A stretch of DNA of 38,450 nucleotides from a virus (Duplodnaviria; Heunggongvirae; Uroviricota; Caudoviricetes). This document shows, piece after piece, positions 1 to 38,063 of the stretch (position 1 is its first letter; each line of letters starts with the position of its first letter). A program made the translations under genes and the position numbers. A model generated the notes under the pieces. It was not told where the DNA came from, did no database searches, and saw only the letters and a list, made by a program, of their open reading frames with translations. The DNA lies in the IMG/VR virus record IMGVR_UViG_2778261515_000019, positions 1-38,450 of that record; one strand, 5' to 3'.

Positions 1-351
1 ATGCGAGAGACAGTCGAAATTATGCGTTATCCCGTCACTCTTACACCCGCGCCGGAAGGCGGTTATATGGTTTCTTTTGTGGATATCCCTGAAGCGTTGA
101 CGCAGGGCGAAACTGTCGCTGAAGCGATGGAAGCGGCAAAAGATGCTTTACTGACCGCATTTGATTTTTATTTTGAAGATAACGAGCTTATCCCTTTACC
201 TTCGCCATTAAATAGTCACGATCACTTTATTGAAGTACCTTTGAGCGTCGCCTCTAAGGTATTGCTGTTAAATGCTTTTTTACAGTCAGAAATCACTCAG
301 CAAGAGTTAGCCAGGCGAATTGGCAAACCTAAATGTTGTAAACCCCAATAA
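1..351 (+). CDS. hicB: HicB-family antitoxin, C-terminally truncated (ORF ends inside predicted HTH, ...ITQQELARRIGKPK then 5 unrelated codons)
   Basis: N-terminal HicB/UPF0150-type sequence MRYPVTLTPAPEGGYMVSFVDIPEALTQGETVAEAMEAAKDAL; HTH-like ITQQELARRIG begins but the ORF stops 8 codons later; sequence character changes after ~337. Confidence 0.6.
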   Translation: MRETVEIMRYPVTLTPAPEGGYMVSFVDIPEALTQGETVAEAMEAAKDALLTAFDFYFEDNELIPLPSPLNSHDHFIEVPLSVASKVLLLNAFLQSEITQQELARRIGKPKCCKPQ

Positions 352-16364: not shown

Positions 16365-19300
16365 ATGCAGTCGATCCAATTTAAACGCACACAAACGGCT
16401 GGTAAAAAACCAACGCCGGAACAATTATCACAGGGTGAAATCGCCTTACAGTTGGCGGATCATGTGATTTACACCAAAGACAAAAATAATAACGTAGTCC
16501 AAATTAGTGTTTCTCCAGAAAAACACGCTGAACTGAATACGAAAGTAGACAATAACAAAACTAGCACTGACCGTGTTATTGCTTCCAACAAACAAGAAGC
16601 CGCTAATAATCTGGCTAGTGCTAAAGCTGAACTGAATCAGACTATTACCACGAAAGATACAGCGACCAATAAGCGCATTGATGCTACTAACACCACGGTT
16701 AGTAACTTAACCCAGACAGTCACGGCAAATAAAACCGATGCTGATACTAAGATCAATAACCTTACGGGGACAGTTGCATCTAACAAATCAGCTATAGAAA
16801 CTACTGTAGCAAATAATAAACGAGATGCGGACAATAAAATCGCAGCTTTAACCACGACGGTTAATGACAATAACACCGCGATTAACAACAAAGTTAATAC
16901 CACTAACACCAACGTTAGCAACTTAACTAAAACTGTTACTGCAAATAAAACCGATGCAGATAACAAAATTTCTAGCTTAACTAGCACGGTTGCAGCTAAC
17001 AAAACAGCGATTGAAAAGGTCGTTTCCGACAACAAGAAAGATGCTGATACGAAGATCACCAACTTAACCAACACTGTTAATAGCAACCACACCGCCATTA
17101 ACAACAAGGTTGACCAGAATAAATCAGCTACTGATTCAGCGATTGCAGCCGCTAACCGTCGAATTGATGGTATTGAAGGTAGCAACGATGCTCTTTACAT
17201 CAAGAAGAATACCAACACTAAGCACGGCGGGTATCTGTTAAGCAAGACAGCTAACTATCTGGAAGACCAGACATCACGAGATCTTAACTACTTTGGTGCT
17301 TTCCGTACCAATGGTCTTGATGGACTCATGGATCTAACTCTTAACGTTCCTCACTCTGCCGGTAAAGCTCACGGTCGCGGATTTACTTTCCGTTATGCGT
17401 CTGGTGGATCTCGTGTTGAAACCTATGGTTTTGATAGAGATGGACAGAAGAACTTTAGCTATAAGATGTATCACGAAGGTGATAAGCCGACTCCTGGCGA
17501 GATTGGTGCATACACCAAAGCCGAAGTTGATAAGATGTTTGTTAAAAACGTCGCTATGTCTGTTCCCAATTCTAGCGAAAACGTATCTGCATATTTCAAA
17601 TTGGCAACCGCAACAATTCCACAAAACGGGCGTAGTGTGTTTTTCCGTATTCATGGTGGTGATGGTTACAACGTTGCGGCATATGACCAAGTTGATGTAG
17701 TAGAAATTCTTCTCCGTAGTGGTAACGATAGACCTAAAGGACTTAACGTAGTTGCATATCGTCGAAATACCGTCAAAGATTTTGATGTATTTGCCGTCAA
17801 TACATCCGGTGATAACTATGACATTTATGTGAAATATCAGCGTTACACTGATAACGTTATTGTAGAATATGGGAAATCTGTTAATGTAAGTCTGACGGTT
17901 TATGATACGCCGGAAGCCACGTTAATTAAACCTTCTGTTGGTGTTATTGGCGGTCGCGCGGTAACTCTATTCAATACAGAAAACAAACGAGGTGTGTTGA
18001 GTTTTGACGATAACACACAAAATAGTTATGATATTGTTCACTTGAGTAATGATAGGGGTACTGGACGAAAATATATTCGTAAATTCCGTAGTAACTATAA
18101 TGAAATGATCTGGCACGAGACGGTTCAAGGCGCCAGCTATCGTCTGGCTACTGGTGCAACTGATGCTCAGGAGATTCTAACCGTTGAATCTGTTAGCTCA
18201 ATTGCTGGAACTCATAAAGGTAATATTACTTCTGGCCGTATGCTGTTAAATGGCGGTAGTAATGTTATTACCTTGCGGCGTCCTGCTGGTCAATCCAACC
18301 ATATTGCGTTTCAAGATAATCGGACTGGAGATATTACCCGTCAAGGGTGGATCGGTTATGCCAATGCTGATACTAACGTTTTTGAATGGTATAGTGATGT
18401 AGGTGGCAGTTCTATTCGTCAACATATCGACGGACAGATCGAACTTGCAACCGGTAACACAAAACGCGTTTATACTAACGCTCAATTCATCTCAATGAAT
18501 AGCGACGCCTACCGTATGCTCTATGGTAATTATGGTGCATTCTGGCGTAATGACGGCGTTAAAGTTTATCTTCTTTCTACTGCCGAAAATGATAAATTGG
18601 GCGGATGGAATACTTATCGTCCATTCATTTATGATTTAACTTCCGGTAACGTTCAATTAGGCGGTGATGGTAACGAAGATGCATTAACGTTAGAACGTGC
18701 TTCTCGTGCCGCTCGCTTTAGTAATGACGTTTACATTAAGAAAGGGCATTTGACTTTCGACGCTGGGCGATTAAATTCCCGCGATTACTTCCGGTTTAAC
18801 CATTGGGGTGATAGCAATAACGGTCGCGATAACATCCTACAGATTGAAGACAGTAAGGGCGCACATTTTACCACTGAACGTACTTTATCAACTGGTGCGA
18901 TTAAAACTAAATTCTTCGGTGATTTGGAATCTGCTGGTCAAATTAAATGGGGTAAAGGGACCGCCGCATCTACGTTTACTCTACGTGTATGGGGTAACGA
19001 TAGTCGTAAACAAATATTTGAATGTGGCGATGAAAGTGGGTGGCATTGGTATACCCAACGACCTGGCGGTCCAGGTACTACAGCAATAGAATTTGCTATC
19101 AACGGTACTGTTAAGCCTCAAGCAATTCACAGTGGCGGTAATATCACTATCAACGGTGCTGATATTGAGTTTCGTCGCAGTGGCAATAAGCATTTGTGGT
19201 TTAGAGATCCGAACGGTTTAGAGTTAGGCTTGATGTACTGCGATGATGCTGGTGCTATTCGCTTCCGTGGTCAGAAACAAGCCCAGGCGTGGAAATTTGC

Positions 19301-19979
19301 AGATAAAATGATCCAGTTGGAATCTGGCACTGTATCCGGTGGCGGTAATGGCCTGATTCGTGGTGAAGTTGCTGGCGGTAGTTGGGCTAGCTGGCGTGAC
19401 CGTGCTGCTGGCCTTATGGTTGGGTGTCCTCAATCCACCAACTCGGCACATAACGTATGGAAAGCGACGCATTGGGGTAAATATCACATTGCAGCAATGG
19501 CTGTACATGTTCCTGATGGTACTATTACCAATGCTTTAGCTCGCCTAAACGTTCATGACGCCAACTTTGACTTTAACGCTGCGGGTGATTTTAGCGCAAG
19601 TCGTAATGGTAGCTTTAACGATGTTTACATTCGTTCGGACCGTCGTCTGAAAGTTAATCTGGAAGAATTAAAAGATGATGCTTTAGAGAAAGTAAACTCC
19701 CTGAAAGTCTACTCATACGATAAAGTTAAGTCTCTTAAAGATCGTAGTGTGATTAAACGCGAAGTCGGTATTATTGCTCAGGATCTGGAAGAAGTATTGC
19801 CGGAAGCAGTAGGTATTCAATCCACCGAAGATCCAGAAAATCCAGAAGCAATTAAGACTATTTCTAACTCTGCTGTTAATGCCTTGATTATTAAAGCTAT
19901 TCAGGAAATGGACGCCAAATATCAAGCTAAGATTGAAGCATTGACTAAAGAGATTGCCGAACTCAAAGCAACTAAATAA
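16365..19979 (+). CDS. Long tail fiber with N-terminal Thr/Asn-rich tandem repeats and C-terminal intramolecular-chaperone-like domain
   Basis: 1204 aa; two ~72-aa repeats NxSNLTxTVTANKTDADxKI...; C-terminal SDRRLKVNLEEL...VYSYD...GIIAQDLEEVLPEAV resembles autoproteolytic chaperone domains of fiber/endosialidase proteins. Confidence 0.8.
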   Translation: MQSIQFKRTQTAGKKPTPEQLSQGEIALQLADHVIYTKDKNNNVVQISVSPEKHAELNTKVDNNKTSTDRVIASNKQEAANNLASAKAELNQTITTKDTATNKRIDATNTTVSNLTQTVTANKTDADTKINNLTGTVASNKSAIETTVANNKRDADNKIAALTTTVNDNNTAINNKVNTTNTNVSNLTKTVTANKTDADNKISSLTSTVAANKTAIEKVVSDNKKDADTKITNLTNTVNSNHTAINNKVDQNKSATDSAIAAANRRIDGIEGSNDALYIKKNTNTKHGGYLLSKTANYLEDQTSRDLNYFGAFRTNGLDGLMDLTLNVPHSAGKAHGRGFTFRYASGGSRVETYGFDRDGQKNFSYKMYHEGDKPTPGEIGAYTKAEVDKMFVKNVAMSVPNSSENVSAYFKLATATIPQNGRSVFFRIHGGDGYNVAAYDQVDVVEILLRSGNDRPKGLNVVAYRRNTVKDFDVFAVNTSGDNYDIYVKYQRYTDNVIVEYGKSVNVSLTVYDTPEATLIKPSVGVIGGRAVTLFNTENKRGVLSFDDNTQNSYDIVHLSNDRGTGRKYIRKFRSNYNEMIWHETVQGASYRLATGATDAQEILTVESVSSIAGTHKGNITSGRMLLNGGSNVITLRRPAGQSNHIAFQDNRTGDITRQGWIGYANADTNVFEWYSDVGGSSIRQHIDGQIELATGNTKRVYTNAQFISMNSDAYRMLYGNYGAFWRNDGVKVYLLSTAENDKLGGWNTYRPFIYDLTSGNVQLGGDGNEDALTLERASRAARFSNDVYIKKGHLTFDAGRLNSRDYFRFNHWGDSNNGRDNILQIEDSKGAHFTTERTLSTGAIKTKFFGDLESAGQIKWGKGTAASTFTLRVWGNDSRKQIFECGDESGWHWYTQRPGGPGTTAIEFAINGTVKPQAIHSGGNITINGADIEFRRSGNKHLWFRDPNGLELGLMYCDDAGAIRFRGQKQAQAWKFADKMIQLESGTVSGGGNGLIRGEVAGGSWASWRDRAAGLMVGCPQSTNSAHNVWKATHWGKYHIAAMAVHVPDGTITNALARLNVHDANFDFNAAGDFSASRNGSFNDVYIRSDRRLKVNLEELKDDALEKVNSLKVYSYDKVKSLKDRSVIKREVGIIAQDLEEVLPEAVGIQSTEDPENPEAIKTISNSAVNALIIKAIQEMDAKYQAKIEALTKEIAELKATK

Positions 19980-29960: not shown

Positions 29961-30239
29961 ATGACTGAAATTATATATGGCGGTATCGGTGTTATCGCCT
30001 TAATTTGCGGTGGTCTTTGGAGACTTCACCGAAATCAATTAGCCACAGAAAATAGATTGTCGAAATTAGAGTCCAATGATGCATTGTTTAATCAGAAGTT
30101 TGAAACAATGCAAAGTAACCATGACCAGATCGCCGAGAGAGTTTATCGCATGGAACAAACACTACACGGTATAGAGAAGAAAGTGGTTGCGATGGACGCC
30201 AAATTTGACCAAGTTCTCGACATACTCAAACAAAAATAA
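29961..30239 (+). CDS. Single-TM protein with coiled-coil tail (holin/antiholin- or spanin-like candidate)
   Basis: N-terminal TM GGIGVIALICGGLW followed by heptad-rich helix. Confidence 0.4.
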   Translation: MTEIIYGGIGVIALICGGLWRLHRNQLATENRLSKLESNDALFNQKFETMQSNHDQIAERVYRMEQTLHGIEKKVVAMDAKFDQVLDILKQK

Positions 30240-30258
30240 TAATAAAAGGGGTGAATAT

Positions 30259-30429
30259 ATGAAGAATAAACTTAAGAAATATTTTGGTTATCTCTTGATT
30301 ATCGCCCTCACTTATAACGTAGCAATTAGACCTCTGCTAACGTCCTTTGGGCTTGAACTCCCGGCTATGACCGTGGATGAACAATTGCTAAGGACACTGG
30401 CGGGGGTCTTTTCGTTATTAGGGGGCTAA
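30259..30429 (+). CDS. Small membrane protein (holin-like candidate), 56 aa from ATG at 30259
   Basis: RBS AAGGGGTG; hydrophobic FGYLLIIALTYNVAI and LAGVFSLLGG. Confidence 0.4.
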   Translation: MKNKLKKYFGYLLIIALTYNVAIRPLLTSFGLELPAMTVDEQLLRTLAGVFSLLGG

Positions 30430-31509: not shown

Positions 31510-31863
31510 ATGTTAAGCAAACATTTTTCTCGCAAGGAATTTAAATGTAAATGCGGAAAATGTGATTATGATACAATCGACGCTGAATTACTGGTAATTC
31601 TTGAGGATGTACGAGAGCACTTCGGTAAACCAGTGATTATTAACAGTGGCAACCGTTGCCCGACTCATAACAAGAATGTAGGCGGGGCAGCCAATAGCTA
31701 TCATGTTCGAGGCCGTGCGGCTGACATTGTGATCAAGGGTGTCTCCCCTGATATTGTCCATGCTTATCTTGATGGGAAATATCCTACTCAATACGGCTTA
31801 GGCAAATATAAAACCTTTACGCATATCGATTCCAGATCGAAAAAATCACGGTGGAATGGATAA
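31510..31863 (+). CDS. Peptidase M15-family cell-wall hydrolase (endolysin candidate)
   Basis: Motifs SYHVRGRAADI and THID (zinc ligands H/D/H of the Hedgehog/DD-peptidase fold) and CKCGKC; RBS GGGGGT. Confidence 0.65.
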   Translation: MLSKHFSRKEFKCKCGKCDYDTIDAELLVILEDVREHFGKPVIINSGNRCPTHNKNVGGAANSYHVRGRAADIVIKGVSPDIVHAYLDGKYPTQYGLGKYKTFTHIDSRSKKSRWNG

Positions 31864-31896
31864 AACAAAAGCGCCTCTAGTGGGCGCTTTTTTGTT
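31864..31896. terminator. Bidirectional terminator between convergent plus operon and helicase gene
   Basis: AAGCGCC-TCTAGTG-GGCGCTT flanked by A-run and T-run. Confidence 0.65.
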
Positions 31897-33394
31897 ATAT
31901 AGCAATTGTTTTAGTTGCATAGCTGAACTTGTCGGTTAGATAATAGCGGATTCTCTCAAGTGCATGTTTTACCGCATAATTTTTATGCTTGACTTTTCCG
32001 TTACGACCGAATATACACAGATGATCTATAAGATCCCAGACCGTTGCAATATCCTTAGAACCATGTTTACGCAATGCACGACCGATACTCTGACGAACGA
32101 TAGTTGATTCCTTCACGGGATGACCGAAAATAACATGGTGCAAGTTCTTAATTGAAACACCAGTAGAGAACACACCATAGGATGCAACGCAAATGATCCC
32201 GGTTTCCCCTTCCGCTAATTTCTTAAATTCATCACGTTCTTCTGTCTTAACTCCACCGTCAATATAATAAACCTTGTTGTGTACCTTCTGTAACGCATCA
32301 TACATAAGTTTTCCGTGCTTAGTATTGCGGAACATCAGGAATACGTTTTCGCCCTTCTTAGCGAGTTTTAGCGCCAAATTACAAGCAAACTTATTTCGTC
32401 GTGGGTTAGACGTAATATACTTGATCTCTTCCGCATATTCTCTCCCCTTAACCGCGCTACATTCCTCATCGGTATAACGAAGGAAAAGACAGTTAATTTT
32501 CAGTTTTGTCACCTGCCCTTCTTCCATCAGGCGGTCAATACTCACGATCTTAGAAATATCACCGAAAAGCCCGACATACTGCATTAAATGGCACTTTGAT
32601 TCTTTCGGGGAACCAGTCATGCCGATCTTAAATTGGCAATGATTCATTCCGTTAATGATATTGGTAATATTTTTGGCACTAGCCTTATGCGATTCATCAA
32701 CTATCAACATTCCATATTGTCGGAACCATTCAGGAGGCATCTTGCAAGCTGATTGCCAGGTACTAACCGTGATTAACCTGTCTCCCGGATGTTTCCCGCT
32801 ACCACTCATCATTGTATGAATTGCTTCATAAGGGAATAACCGATAATCGATGAAATCATCCCTCATTTGAACCACTAGCGATGTAGTAGGGACAATGATT
32901 AACACTTTTCCGGTGTAATGCTCTAAGTACCAGCGAGACAGCATACAAGCAATCAATGACTTTCCGGCACTGGTAGGAAGAACCAGCATTCTACGGCGAT
33001 TATGAATACCCTGAAAGACTGCCTCCCTTTGATACCAGTAAGGATTGATTTTATTGGAACCGGAATACACTTCTAGGGAATCAATCCATTCATTAATCGC
33101 GTCTTTGGTTACATCTTCCTTCTCAAGTAATCTGGGGTCAATCCAGACTGAATACCCCATATTTTTAACGAAGACACCCAACGTTTTTAATAGTCCAATT
33201 GGTAGGGTGTTTTCATGCGTAAACAGTCTTATTCGTCCATCCCAGCCAGAATACTTGTAACGGGGGCTAAACCTAGCCCCTTCAACCTCAAACGAGAAAT
33301 AATCTCTTAATTCCATTCCGATAGAAGGAGAGCAATCAACCTTAACGAAACTGTAATCTTGAAAATGAATTTTAATATCTTGCATTAGTTCCAC
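31895..33394 (-). CDS. SF2 DNA helicase, UvsW-like
   Basis: Motif I LPTSAGKS, motif II LIVDESH; N-terminal IKIHFQDYSFVKVDCSP...LRDYFSFEVEGARF...WDGRIRLF strongly resembles T4 UvsW as recalled. Confidence 0.8.
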   Translation of the reverse strand: MELMQDIKIHFQDYSFVKVDCSPSIGMELRDYFSFEVEGARFSPRYKYSGWDGRIRLFTHENTLPIGLLKTLGVFVKNMGYSVWIDPRLLEKEDVTKDAINEWIDSLEVYSGSNKINPYWYQREAVFQGIHNRRRMLVLPTSAGKSLIACMLSRWYLEHYTGKVLIIVPTTSLVVQMRDDFIDYRLFPYEAIHTMMSGSGKHPGDRLITVSTWQSACKMPPEWFRQYGMLIVDESHKASAKNITNIINGMNHCQFKIGMTGSPKESKCHLMQYVGLFGDISKIVSIDRLMEEGQVTKLKINCLFLRYTDEECSAVKGREYAEEIKYITSNPRRNKFACNLALKLAKKGENVFLMFRNTKHGKLMYDALQKVHNKVYYIDGGVKTEERDEFKKLAEGETGIICVASYGVFSTGVSIKNLHHVIFGHPVKESTIVRQSIGRALRKHGSKDIATVWDLIDHLCIFGRNGKVKHKNYAVKHALERIRYYLTDKFSYATKTIAI

Positions 33395-33682: not shown

Positions 33683-34177
33683 TTATCTATACTCATTTGG
33701 AATTTCGATATGAAGTGTCTCACACAATAACTTCACATCATGTGCATCATTTTCATCAAACTCGTATCCCAGATGGAACATTACTTGACTATATGGTTCA
33801 ATACAGGAAACCTCTATTTCCTCAATTCTTCCTTTACCCGAAAAAGTTTCTACCGGAAAACAATCCCCATCATAAAGAATTTCACCTTCGTCCGTATATT
33901 CAAAACAATGCAAATCAATAATTCTGTTTTTCAAATCTTCCCATACAGTATGGTTCAATGTTGTATATTCCATCTTAATCTCATAAAAGCCATTAGCTTT
34001 CATTATTTCTATAAAGTTCTGATAATCGTTCTTTTCTACAAAAATGTCAATATCATTATGGGCTCTTGACTGATATCCAAGAAGAGCATCTACACCCCAT
34101 CCACCATCAAGAAAGACTTTAATCTCCGCATCTATTGCAAATTGAAGAATCTGTTTTACATCTGTTATATTGACCAT
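33683..34177 (-). CDS. lnuC: Lincosamide nucleotidyltransferase, Lnu family (lnu(C)-like), 164 aa
   Basis: Motifs FLDGGWGVDALLG, HNDIDIFV, FHLGYEFDENDAHD typical of Lin/Lnu nucleotidyltransferases; 495-bp ORF from ATG at 34177 (track ORF extends to 34246). Confidence 0.7.
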   Translation of the reverse strand: MVNITDVKQILQFAIDAEIKVFLDGGWGVDALLGYQSRAHNDIDIFVEKNDYQNFIEIMKANGFYEIKMEYTTLNHTVWEDLKNRIIDLHCFEYTDEGEILYDGDCFPVETFSGKGRIEEIEVSCIEPYSQVMFHLGYEFDENDAHDVKLLCETLHIEIPNEYR

Positions 34178-34200
34178 CTTATCATCTCCACAAATTCTAA

Positions 34201-35244
34201 TTAGGCGACCAGAGGAACTGCTGGTCTGTTTGATAAATCTCTGCATTTAGCAGTTTTCAATGTTGCCAAAACAAAAGTTAAGAAGATGTTCCTTTTCTCC
34301 ATGTCGCTTTCTTTGGCGTAATTTACAAGGTTATTCCACACAAGATAGTTGTTCAGATACTTGGTAGAAACACCGTTAAAGCCACGCATAAACCTCTTTA
34401 GCTGGCTATGGTAGCTATTGATATGTTGGATATTATAAATGCCTTTCTTGGCTTTGCCAGTCTTTAACTGCACAAGGTCAATGCCATTGGCATTTGTAAA
34501 TCTCACATAGGAGTTCATCTTGTCCGTAACAAGAGTGGAATTGGTCTTAATCCTACCATCATAAATATGATGTAAATCTCTTGTAGAAACTCTACCAGTA
34601 TTCGTAATCTTGGAGATAGACAAGCCATTCCTATTAACCGCACAAGGAACACATACCTTTTCTTGGGACAAGCCTCTGATATGTGTAGAATGACCACGCT
34701 TATGAGCCTTGCGTGGCATAGCAAATGTCTTACTCTTGCTATGATTGCCCTTGTACGAGATGGCGAAAAAAGTTTCGTCAGCCTCAATAATGCCGTCAAG
34801 GGTAACATCGTCTGCCATATTCTGAAGTGCATCCAAAATCTTGTGTCTCCAAAGGAATGCGGTGTTTCTGTGAATCCCACAAGCAACAGCAGTCTTACGA
34901 ATGGATAAGCCATTCATCATACAATCAATGTACTGCTCCCACACGGACAAGTCTTTTCTTGTACCAGACACAATGGAGTTCGTAGCAATCACGAAGGACT
35001 TGCCACAATCCTTACATACATATCGCTGTGTGCCATCTTTACGATGACCATTGCGAACCACATGGATACAGCCACAAAGAGGGCATACACGACCATTTGC
35101 AAAGCGTTCCTTTGCTACGAAATCTTCAATATTCAAAGACTTTACAAAGGCAGGACTTAAAAGCATTGTTTTAAGGCTTTCCTGCTCTGCGACAGTCAAC
35201 TTACCGATAATATCTAATGCGTCTTTGATAGTAGGCATATCCAA
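34201..35244 (-). CDS. IS1595-family (ISXO2-like) DDE transposase
   Basis: 347 aa; N-terminal zinc-ribbon CPLCGC...CKDCGK; DDE core; directly upstream of lnu gene inside the IR-bounded element. Confidence 0.75.
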   Translation of the reverse strand: MDMPTIKDALDIIGKLTVAEQESLKTMLLSPAFVKSLNIEDFVAKERFANGRVCPLCGCIHVVRNGHRKDGTQRYVCKDCGKSFVIATNSIVSGTRKDLSVWEQYIDCMMNGLSIRKTAVACGIHRNTAFLWRHKILDALQNMADDVTLDGIIEADETFFAISYKGNHSKSKTFAMPRKAHKRGHSTHIRGLSQEKVCVPCAVNRNGLSISKITNTGRVSTRDLHHIYDGRIKTNSTLVTDKMNSYVRFTNANGIDLVQLKTGKAKKGIYNIQHINSYHSQLKRFMRGFNGVSTKYLNNYLVWNNLVNYAKESDMEKRNIFLTFVLATLKTAKCRDLSNRPAVPLVA

Positions 35245-35395: not shown

Positions 35396-37075
35396 TTAAA
35401 TTCCAAATTCCTGTAATGGACCTGGTATTTCCTCTTCTGGTTTCCAGTTCTTATCTGTCAGCATGTCTAAACATGGATGCAGAACAAGCCCGTTACTCTC
35501 CAGAATCTGCCTATCATTGATAGTCTTCAAATCAACGAAGATCCGGCCTTTCCTCGGTCCTCTTGAATTTTCTATTACAACTCTCTGGGTCTTGCCATCG
35601 ATGTATTCCAGTACAAACAAGTTTTTGTACTTGTCAATCCTGCTACACCCGATCCGTTTTAGAGCTTGCTTAATCTTAAACCGGACCTTAATGCGATCCT
35701 CATTATAAACATCTTCTAAATCAAATTCTGCGAGCTTCTCCCAGCCTTGAGAGTCCACAGAATACATTTCCTCTTCTGCCATCTTAATCTGATTGTAGAG
35801 TGTTTCACGCTCGCTATTGAGGGTAGTAATCTGGTCGGCTAACTCCTTCGTTGCTCCTGTCATAGCAGAAAGGGTAATCAGGTTATCAATCTTGCGTGAT
35901 ATTTCATCAATCTGTACTTTCAAAGCCGGAACCGGATTAGCCTTATCCTCAGCAATCCAGATTTTATCAGCCAGCAATTGCAATACAGCTTTCTCTAATT
36001 GATCACCTCGAAAACTCCAGTTTGTATGCACACATGCAATACGACTAGAGCGCATTGCATCGCATGAATAACGATATTGGTTAGGACGTTTGTTAGTTCC
36101 TTTCACCTTAACCATAGCGGAACCGCAATGTTCACATTTCAATAGACCAACACCACTAAGCAAGGGAATAGGTTTAACTTCTTCCTTGTCTCCATAGTTA
36201 CATGCTCTAACACCAATGCTTTTCTTAAGGTGATAAAACTCAGCGTCATCTAGCACACGAGGATAATAATCCTTTAACTCATACTTAACGCCATCTACAG
36301 AGATTTCCTTGATACCAATCAAAGCGCGGGTATGGAACAACCTTTCAATCATTGCCCGTGACCAGTTTGAATGCCTCTTGTGACTTGCGGCTGGTGGTGG
36401 TGTATATGTCGCGTTAAGGTGATCCAGTATTTCGGCGGTAGACCGTCCATTCCTGCGTAATTCCACAACCTCCTGAACAATAGGGAAGAAGACCGGATCG
36501 GGACACACATAACCGGAAGTGGTATCAGTCCACCACATATTCTTTCCAATTTCCTCGATTGCAACAGCCGGATTTTGTGGATTTTCTTGATGAGCTTTAA
36601 TCTTAATCAATGCGCTTGAGTTAGTACGATTGCGCTTAGTCTGACTTTCCTCGTTAGCTCTCGCAAACAACATGACACTCAACAGCAAATCAATAGGATT
36701 GGCATTAACCGATTCCTTGCTATAGACCTTACCATCCATGCCAGTTACGATAGTTATTCCCCTACGGATAATCGAGAGAAATAGCTCTTGTGCTTCAATG
36801 ATGGATTGGCGAGAGATACGGTCCAAGTTTTCCACAACCAGCCAGCTACCAACCGGAACAGATCGACCAATCTCATCCAGAAAGCGAGATAGTGCACCTG
36901 TTCTACTGTTAGCCCCTTTGAATGCAGATACACCAAAATCCTGATAGCTTGTAACTAGCTCAAGATCATATTTTGCGGCTATCTCTGCGGCTGTTCTCTT
37001 CTGGCGTTCATAAGAACTACCATCCGCTTGCTTCATAGACGAGAAGCGAATATACGAATACAGTTTAGTTTTCAT
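35396..37075 (-). CDS. Large serine recombinase (resolvase/integrase family)
   Basis: N-terminal catalytic motif YSYIRFSSMKQ...ERQ; central recombinase domain; zinc-ribbon Cys cluster CEHCGS...SCD...CVH; C-terminal coiled coil; ATG at 37075 (track ORF starts at TTG 37090). Confidence 0.8.
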   Translation of the reverse strand: MKTKLYSYIRFSSMKQADGSSYERQKRTAAEIAAKYDLELVTSYQDFGVSAFKGANSRTGALSRFLDEIGRSVPVGSWLVVENLDRISRQSIIEAQELFLSIIRRGITIVTGMDGKVYSKESVNANPIDLLLSVMLFARANEESQTKRNRTNSSALIKIKAHQENPQNPAVAIEEIGKNMWWTDTTSGYVCPDPVFFPIVQEVVELRRNGRSTAEILDHLNATYTPPPAASHKRHSNWSRAMIERLFHTRALIGIKEISVDGVKYELKDYYPRVLDDAEFYHLKKSIGVRACNYGDKEEVKPIPLLSGVGLLKCEHCGSAMVKVKGTNKRPNQYRYSCDAMRSSRIACVHTNWSFRGDQLEKAVLQLLADKIWIAEDKANPVPALKVQIDEISRKIDNLITLSAMTGATKELADQITTLNSERETLYNQIKMAEEEMYSVDSQGWEKLAEFDLEDVYNEDRIKVRFKIKQALKRIGCSRIDKYKNLFVLEYIDGKTQRVVIENSRGPRKGRIFVDLKTINDRQILESNGLVLHPCLDMLTDKNWKPEEEIPGPLQEFGI

Positions 37076-37086
37076 ACCATTTCCAA

Positions 37087-37124
37087 ACAAAAACGCCCCT
37101 ACCGCGTATTATAACGATAGGGGC
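37087..37124 (-). terminator. Terminator between gene 37141..37386 and recombinase gene
   Basis: 10-bp stem GCCCCTACCG/CGATAGGGGC (one wobble in RNA sense) then U-run in minus sense. Confidence 0.5.
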
Positions 37125-37140
37125 ATTGGTTAGTAAGTCA

Positions 37141-37386
37141 TTAATATTTCTTTCCAGTTAGTTTTGCATCACGTTTATTAATATCCTCGATATGACTCCA
37201 TACACACGCAGTAATAAAGTCGTCATCGTCACCAACTCCGGCAACCTGTGCTAATTCAGTACACAGTTGATTTAAAGAAGGTGCAACGGCAGCACGCTTG
37301 ACACTATCACCCTGTACATATTGATCCGCATTAGCAGCACCAACCAAACCCAGAGCAAGAACGATACCAGCGATAATCTTTTTCAT
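37141..37386 (-). CDS. Small secreted protein (signal peptide, 81 aa)
   Basis: MKKIIAGIVLALGLVGAANA signal peptide with AxA cleavage motif; RBS GAGGA. Confidence 0.5.
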   Translation of the reverse strand: MKKIIAGIVLALGLVGAANADQYVQGDSVKRAAVAPSLNQLCTELAQVAGVGDDDDFITACVWSHIEDINKRDAKLTGKKY

Positions 37387-37415
37387 AATAGAATCCTCTT
37401 TGTTATTTGAATTAA

Positions 37416-37730
37416 TTAGTCTTTGAAGTCGATGGTCACGTTACCTTTAAGGGCAAGTTCCATTAAACAACTGCGCTCATCCTTCATGCTCTTACACAAT
37501 TTCATCCCGTAAACAACGAGATTATCTTTCTCTTTCCAATATTTTTGTTTATCTGCATAAACCTCGCTATATTCACTGTCTTTGAGTGAGAGAGCATTTT
37601 CTAACTGGCTAATCTCCTGATTCAGATCCTTAATCTCGGCCTTATTTGACCGGATAGTCTCTTGATGTTGAGTATCGGAATAGTCATACCCACAAACAAA
37701 TCCACCGATGCCACCAACACACAGAAACAA
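37416..37730 (-). CDS. Coiled-coil protein; a signal-peptide/TM-like N-terminus (MKKTIYAIIVSVC) lies 1 nt out of frame upstream (ATG at 37755)
   Basis: Track ORF starts at TTG; upstream ATG with RBS GAGGATTCAATTATG encodes 13 signal-like residues then shifts frame inside a GTGTGT tract. Confidence 0.4.
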   Translation of the reverse strand: MFLCVGGIGGFVCGYDYSDTQHQETIRSNKAEIKDLNQEISQLENALSLKDSEYSEVYADKQKYWKEKDNLVVYGMKLCKSMKDERSCLMELALKGNVTIDFKD

Positions 37731-37777
37731 TAATTGCGTAGATAGTCTTTTTCATAATTGAATCCTCTTTGAATGAA

Positions 37778-37921
37778 TTACGATATATTTATATCATTAA
37801 AAATTGATGCTAATTACCAGACCAAACACAACCGCACCAATCAAATCAATCCAGTTAATACACAATCCGCTATATTCTTTCTTGAATGTCTTAGATGAAA
37901 TGCCATCATGAAATTGTTTCA
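37778..37921 (-). CDS. Candidate small membrane peptide (47 aa)
   Basis: Hand-translated MKQFHDGISSKTFKKEYSGLCINWIDLIGAVVFGLVISINFNDINIS; purine-rich stretch before ATG; below ORF-track length cutoff. Confidence 0.25.
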
Positions 37922-38022
37922 TTGCTCACCCCATACTAACGACAATATAAGAAAGGCTGATCATAGTTGTGAGACTACCTCCCACGAATGAGATAAAAGC
38001 TAACATGTTTGATTCTCCAGTT

Positions 38023-38048
38023 TAAAAAGCGGTGGGAATTGCACCCAC
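38023..38048 (-). terminator. Terminator for gene 38064..38450
   Basis: GGTGGG-AATTGCA-CCCACC with A-run on plus side. Confidence 0.5.
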
Positions 38049-38063
38049 CAAATTAGAAATTAA

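Follow-up and report, generated by a model that had tools for sequence, protein, structure and literature searches.

The window analysed here, a stretch of 38,450 nt, contains a gene for a small exported protein that has been split into two reading frames at a short TG repeat. In our judgement this reflects, with a probability of roughly 85%, a genuine inherited 2-bp deletion which inactivates a dispensable prophage gene. Relatives of the same gene type carry one more TG unit and encode a single contiguous protein, while the shortened allele recurs in independently sequenced E. coli strains.

The split gene and its TG tract

The gene consists of two overlapping reading frames on the minus strand. 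As the first-pass annotation had correctly described, with accurate coordinates, an ATG (37755-37753) with a good ribosome-binding site (RBS) opens an ORF of 23 codons (MKKTIYAIIVSVCWWHRWICLWV), which ends at a stop codon at 37686-37684, and the long ORF continues in an offset frame. This second ORF (37730-37416, minus strand) comprises 104 codons in the +1 frame, begins with a mechanically assigned TTG start and ends in ...VTIDFKD. The features of the gene are as follows.

37763-37768, minus strand: Shine-Dalgarno-like AGAGGA, 7 nt 5′ of the ATG; the longer leader is AAAGAGGA
37684-37755, minus strand: 5′ fragment of the split gene, opening with the ATG and made up of 13 native codons (MKKTIYAIIVSVC), 10 out-of-frame codons and TGA
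37716-37723, minus strand: T(GT)3T, or (TG)3, tract, where 2 bp have been deleted; relatives of the same gene type have (TG)4
37416-37717, minus strand: remainder of the split gene toward its 3′ end, read in the +1 frame as VGGIGGFVCGYDYS...DFKD, which equals residues 14-113 of the intact protein P0007

The tract in the window reads TC-TGTGTG-TTGG, with (TG)3 at 37723-37718; it may alternatively be read as T(GT)3T at 37723-37716. The TGTGTGTG run thus has one TG unit fewer, whereby the export signal is cut off from the remainder of the protein. Taken alone the tract is ordinary, there being 65 dinucleotide tracts of three units in the window. The split gene, unlike the tract, exceeds chance: the repaired protein matches P0001 with an E value of 2e-63, and P0007 is its exact intact version. 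The native part of the N-terminus of the 5′ fragment matches these same two proteins, and the 104-aa product of the frameshift is an exact match to P0006 (NCBI EFN8308010.1 and EFN8309519.1). Two repairs had been proposed from the sequence of the window. Insertion of 2 nt (GT) gives exactly the natural homologue sequence, TC(TG)4TTGG, and a contiguous protein of 113 aa; deletion of 1 nt likewise restores the frame but corresponds to no natural allele.

Alleles of the tract in relatives

A search with the repaired protein reveals a small family, all members of which are contiguous and 106-113 aa in length. At the DNA level TC(TG)4TTGG is present in 27 of 27 distinct relatives of the same gene type, which were drawn from E. 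coli chromosomes, draft assemblies, two IMG/VR contigs and two metagenome contigs, and which encode one contiguous 113-aa protein (P0007). Pattern scans of viral contigs and of metagenome contigs yielded two matches each, all of them (TG)4; the scan of genome contigs, in a collection holding one genome per species, gave none. The diverged homologues of the P0002 and P0004 types also possess (TG)4, whereas in the P0005-type homologue (L034) a synonymous GTA breaks the TG run, and in the more distant Salmonella members other residues are encoded at this position. The repeat is evidently a by-product of the Ser-Val-Cys-Val codons and not a conserved feature.

The (TG)3 allele was read at the DNA level in the window and in eight further loci, and P0006 is encoded on at least 19 contigs derived from separate SRA sequencing runs and NCBI assemblies, in different E. 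coli host backgrounds. The host flanks of the (TG)3 carriers differ by 0.1-4.9%, that is, by 8-348 SNPs over 7.1 kb (8-109 among carriers and 320-348 for locus L022), and the cargo beside the integrase varies among them as well. Since both flanks and cargo differ, the carriers represent neither a single clone nor a single error, and the allele is a heritable one which has moved between hosts.

Intact copies are far more numerous. The collection lists P0007 in 1310 blocks, to which the remaining intact haplotypes contribute several hundred further contigs; the ratio of intact to deleted copies is approximately 70 to 1 (1310+ versus 19), which puts the deleted allele at about 1%. Eight complete E. 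coli genomes carry the gene, in each case in intact form. Among 15 billion proteins there were no predicted products of (TG)5 or (TG)2, nor of (TG)3 on five other protein haplotypes that together are represented by about 300 contigs.

The deletion sits on two local haplotypes. L022, which is deleted, matches the intact loci L037 and L040 at every position over 685 nt save for the missing TG. Six flanking SNPs set the window-type allele apart from L022; the closest ones are 72 nt away on the upstream side of the tract and 245 nt away on the downstream side, and their states in the window-type allele are common to other intact alleles. This suggests that the deletion arose twice, two independent events being at least as parsimonious as one deletion followed by two close recombinations. 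The window-type clade is stably (TG)3 across different hosts. The first-pass annotation had held that relatives with the same two-frame arrangement would speak against its reading. Such relatives do formally exist, but they constitute only one or two very recent lineages, and a single frame is the norm in the family.

Origin of the frameshift

Three origins had been put forward for the two frames: a frameshift mutation, a sequencing error, and a slippage-prone switch. The comparison of (TG)4 in relatives with (TG)3 in the window favors the first. One TG has been removed from TC(TG)4TTGG within the Ser-Val-Cys-Val codons, most probably by replication slippage; the deleted allele is now fixed and inherited in a small prophage lineage across several E. 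coli backgrounds, and is present on a second haplotype also. The classic precedent for such slipped-strand indels is the CTGG-repeat hotspot of lacI, where, as here, a short tandem array becomes one unit shorter and the resulting frameshift leaves a null allele. As at that hotspot, the same event has probably recurred, in our case on the second haplotype. The difference is that here the unit is a dinucleotide, present in only four copies, within an accessory gene of a prophage. As a type of mutation it is ordinary and would not surprise a specialist.

Reversible phase variation, in which the tract would act as a contingency locus toggled by slipped-strand mispairing between ON, (TG)4, and OFF, (TG)3, is improbable. 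The loss of exactly one repeat unit is what it would predict, and the presence of (TG)3 on two haplotypes, with L022 separated from L037 and L040 by the TG unit alone, suggests recurrence and a somewhat mutable tract. The resemblance extends to the contingency loci of Haemophilus, Neisseria, and Campylobacter surface genes, which also have a repeat close to the start of a gene whose product is exported, and where the change of a unit toggles the frame. However, our tract is far shorter than those, changes in one direction between two lengths only, and has an OFF allele that is rare and stably inherited, the window-type clade keeping (TG)3 in host after host. Known dinucleotide contingency tracts are far longer than four units. 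The synonymous GTA in the tract of L034 argues further that the repeat is not maintained by selection. The large excess of intact copies, the absence of (TG)2 and (TG)5 and the lack of frameshifts on the other haplotypes together point to a weak mutational hotspot and not to phase variation. We conclude that the tract is presumably such a hotspot, with no sign of a reversible high-rate switch, and the suggestion of a slippage-prone switch is thus not borne out.

A weaker form of this idea, also improbable in our estimation, is that (TG)4 at codons 11-14 is a low-rate, recurrent ON-to-OFF slippage site which is possibly reversible. If this were true, lysogens could shed or regain an envelope or exclusion protein belonging to an uncharacterized prophage family of enterobacteria, and the locus would be a rare example in E. 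coli of a simple-sequence contingency gene, and a phage-borne one.

Sequencing or assembly error in a short repeat, with (TG)4 in the real genome, is very unlikely. Indels in repeats are a common class of error and the single window offers no read support. Yet at least 19 runs and assemblies, obtained independently and with divergent host flanks and different neighboring cargo, show exactly this (TG)3 allele, which refutes this second proposal. The loss of 2 nt from a four-unit dinucleotide repeat is, moreover, not a typical Illumina error.

Programmed recoding, by which ribosomes would shift +1 or -2 at the tract and so produce the full-length protein, has a negligible probability: the two ORFs do overlap and a simple +1 shift would suffice, but the gene is in a single frame in over 98% of copies and in every diverged homologue, no known slippery or stall motif is visible in GTG TGT TGG TGG, and the lack of conservation of the two-frame layout excludes programmed frameshifting.

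The intact protein and the effect of the deletion

The intact 113-aa protein begins with Lys2-Lys3 followed by a hydrophobic stretch of 20 residues (residues 4-23). Its AlphaFold2 (AF2) model consists of a helix (residues 28-89), a turn and a second helix (residues 94-105). Hydropathy and the model uphold the earlier suggestion that repair would join the two frames into one protein that starts with a hydrophobic signal or anchor and contains a long helix. Gly23-Tyr24 is invariant in the family, and this pair could equally be a signal-peptidase site, in which case the product would be a soluble periplasmic protein instead of a membrane-anchored one. A lipoprotein N-terminus was considered and rejected, Cys22 not being conserved and there being no lipobox. 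Cys88 and Cys97 are invariant and flank the turn, giving a conserved CX8C C-terminus. The C-terminal motif LCKxMK(D/E)xRxCLMELA…DFKD is strongly conserved, while the middle of the protein differs greatly from one homologue to another. A comparison of close intact alleles gave 11 synonymous and three non-synonymous variable sites, indicating purifying selection on the gene.

In the window the sole good RBS drives the 23-residue peptide. The 104-aa ORF lacks a Shine-Dalgarno sequence and retains only 13 hydrophobic residues; its hydropathy maximum over a 19-residue window is 0.88, compared with 2.12 for the intact protein. Translation from the good RBS would now end after 23 codons, and the remaining 100 native codons, with no RBS and with 13 hydrophobic residues, would be neither efficiently made nor exported. 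From this we infer that the window carries a null allele, or pseudogene. Low-level expression of the 104-aa ORF from its TTG is possible. Reinitiation after the stop of the 23-codon ORF was also considered, and was rejected from the sequence: the ATGA overlap enters the third frame and not the coding frame.

The host prophage

The window represents a prophage of E. coli that has integrated into hicB. Its first ORF (1-351, plus strand) is the 5′ part of the host hicB, the gene for the HicB antitoxin being interrupted. Related prophages are found at hicB, ycdX, or codB, or near phr/DUF1722; those at the last three sites (L011, L012, L028, and L049) have variant serine recombinases. The window encodes a GpA-type large terminase, structural genes, a GpJ-type tail-tip protein and an M15 endolysin (31510-31863, plus strand), followed by a leftward block with a UvsW-like helicase, an IS1595-family transposase, an ANT(2″)-like nucleotidyltransferase and a large serine recombinase (35396-37090). 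There is no close isolated phage, the best terminase match being 43% identical, and a literature search for hicB-integrating serine-recombinase prophages returned no relevant paper.

Several other regions of the prophage deserve mention. Within the 1204-aa ORF at 16365-19979, a 2.7-kb stretch (17232-19910, plus strand) has 84-86% DNA identity to gp37 of RB49-like T-even phages (Krischvirus). Gp37 is the distal subunit of the long tail fiber, and this looks like a receptor-binding module common to a temperate prophage and virulent myoviruses. The cargo between integrase and helicase (33683-35244, minus strand) comprises the 347-aa transposase of the IS1595 family and a 187-aa nucleotidyltransferase that matches PF10706 with an E value of 2e-24. 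The latter, an aminoglycoside-2″-adenylyltransferase-like gene present in only some relatives, could be resistance or defense cargo. The UvsW-like DEAD/DEAH helicase (31895-33394, minus strand; 499 aa) is variable cargo convergent with the endolysin and shows weak PADLOC matches to PbeA and to type IV restriction helicases. Lastly, the stretch 3′ of the tail-tip gene (29961-30429, plus strand) encodes a 92-aa protein with a transmembrane (TM) segment and coiled coil, and a 56-aa double-hydrophobic protein that starts at an internal ATG of an 80-aa ORF, as called in relatives. These two are candidate holin- or spanin-like lysis components; two other genes lie between them and the M15 endolysin.

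The accessory unit around the gene

The split gene belongs to a small unit, flanked by terminator-like sequences, the features of which are listed here.

38030-38050, minus strand: terminator-like hairpin and T-run after a 128-aa gene, the upstream border of the unit
37797-38006, minus strand: two tiny hydrophobic ORFs, one of 26 aa (38006-37926; MLAFISFVGGSLTTMISLSYIVVSMG) and one of 41 aa (37922-37797) with a C-terminal TM segment
37408-37414, minus strand: downstream copy of the direct repeat TAATTCA, the upstream copy being at 37780-37774; the repeat brackets the 113-aa cassette
37141-37386, minus strand: downstream 81-aa gene with a cleavable signal peptide (cleavage between …GAANA and DQ) and no lipobox Cys at the cleavage site
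37092-37127, minus strand: terminator-like hairpin (14 pairs) and T-run following the 81-aa gene and closing the unit on its downstream side
35396-37090, minus strand: large serine recombinase (prophage integrase), directly downstream of the unit

Four sites resembling intrinsic terminators were found where 0.7 were expected. No convincing promoter for the unit was found; the only candidate, a 9/12 match, lies inside the 26-aa ORF, and such sites are fewer than in shuffled sequence. The GC content of the unit is 38.3%, a small difference from that of the window (41.7%) and of the structural genes (43.1%). The 128-aa gene is att-proximal and lies on the other side of the split gene from the integrase. 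Both tiny ORFs are preceded by an SD-like sequence, and their DNA is conserved in relatives, even in one without the 113-aa gene; they may encode small membrane proteins or toxins.

The gene itself is covered in only eight of 58 matching complete genomes and is missing from about 50 of the 58. In a gene-less relative (L026) the flanks are joined exactly at the TAATTCA repeat. The slot of the 81-aa gene varies too, being occupied in relatives by the 81-aa gene or a 137-aa gene, or left empty; in L049, whose junction was likewise verified to lack the 113-aa gene, the slot holds only a different, 137-aa gene. As judged from its distribution, the 113-aa gene is a dispensable, accessory, moron-like cassette. 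Its accessory and dispensable nature accounts for the persistence, and continued spread, of a null allele; loss of the protein would be tolerated since the phage does not need the gene.

The initiation regions of the 113-aa gene (37740-37780, minus strand) and the 81-aa gene (37371-37414, minus strand) share AAAGAGGATTCnATTATGAAAAAGAnTATC, in which 28 of 30 positions are identical. Both have TAATTCA at the 5′ side, and it is exactly there that cassettes come and go among relatives, a pattern suggestive of shuffling by way of a shared leader. The RBS and first codons of the 81-aa gene (37354-37407, minus strand) resemble, at 85-88% identity across some 54 nt, the beginning of RB49p262, a hypothetical protein of 252 aa; this leader match is found in 47 RB49-like phages.

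Protein family and possible function

The family is small: a profile search over 1.84 billion representative sequences gave seven matches, and at 90% identity the members form 33 clusters. The members are confined to prophage ends in E. coli/Shigella and Salmonella, and every one is annotated as “hypothetical.” Against a GenBank collection of phages, megablast of the 1-kb region gave no match and blastn gave only the 54-nt leader match to RB49-like phages, and a tblastn search of 50,697 phage records with the repaired protein was also negative. A Foldseek comparison of the AF2 model with the PDB returned nothing below E=8, a long single helix being uninformative, and no paper mentioning the accession WP_000751417 was found in a literature search. 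Two further proteins share parts of the sequence. P0023 (153 aa) has only the leader and TM segment MKKTIAAIIVSVCVGAVGG in common with the family; its C-terminal domain is unrelated, suggesting that modules are exchanged at the leader. P0003 (189 aa, on a 703-nt contig) joins a PF00768 N-terminus to the C-terminal two thirds of the 113-aa protein and is probably an assembly chimera.

The most likely function of the intact protein, held tentatively and at no better than even odds, is a lysogeny-expressed role in the envelope or in exclusion. By analogy with moron envelope proteins it would work in the envelope of the lysogen, where it might, for instance, exclude superinfecting phages or modify the cell surface. 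The superinfection exclusion protein gp15 of prophage HK97 is a small moron envelope protein of this kind (PMC3594210). Like HK97 gp15, our protein is small, has an N-terminal membrane or signal segment and comes from an add-on unit that ends in a terminator-like hairpin; it also resembles prophage morons in its variable presence among related prophages and in its location beside the integrase and att end. It differs in having no sequence relationship to HK97 gp15/YebO (a Pfam scan to E values up to 0.1 produced no YebO-type family), in lying next to the integrase and not in the tail operon, and in the lack of a discernible promoter.

That the intact gene encodes a phage i-spanin (Rz-like), so that the frameshift would cripple the last step of lysis, seems to us improbable. 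Its resemblance to Rz-type i-spanins lies in an architecture, seen in hydropathy and the AF2 model, of an N-terminal hydrophobic segment, a long periplasmic helix and cysteines, and in a weak match to PHROG 739 (“Rz-like spanin”; residues 2-76, 19 bits, E=0.0024), which is below threshold and is the only sequence support for the spanin-like character proposed at first. The remaining library matches, in Pfam, NCBIfam, PADLOC, and PHROGs, are sub-threshold, generic TM and coiled-coil look-alikes (DUF7491, FtsL, LapA, an RmuC-type N-terminus), with no spanin family from Pfam or NCBIfam among them. Against this proposal, the protein is shorter than a typical Rz and has no o-spanin partner. There is no lipobox ORF inside or adjoining the gene: the alternative-frame ORFs within it (31 and 32 aa) contain no Cys, hence no lipobox, and the 81-aa neighbor has a signal of the signal-peptidase-I type, cleaved between ANA and DQ. 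The Salmonella homologues are followed by cytoplasmic-looking small proteins and not by lipoproteins. The gene lies outside the lysis cassette, between terminators of its own and about 5.5 kb from the M15 endolysin, which is on the opposite strand, and most related prophages do without it.

Implications

For annotation, the two ORFs at 37416-37755 are to be treated as one frameshifted pseudogene of a WP_000751417-type protein; public records call instead a 104-aa gene with a TTG start (P0006, EFN8308010.1). The intact gene defines an uncharacterized but clearly selected family of small exported proteins, with a variable helical middle and a conserved CX8C C-terminus, located att-proximally in prophages of E. 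coli and Salmonella. The family is a reasonable candidate for screens of prophage envelope or exclusion functions, in which the natural null alleles would provide ready controls.
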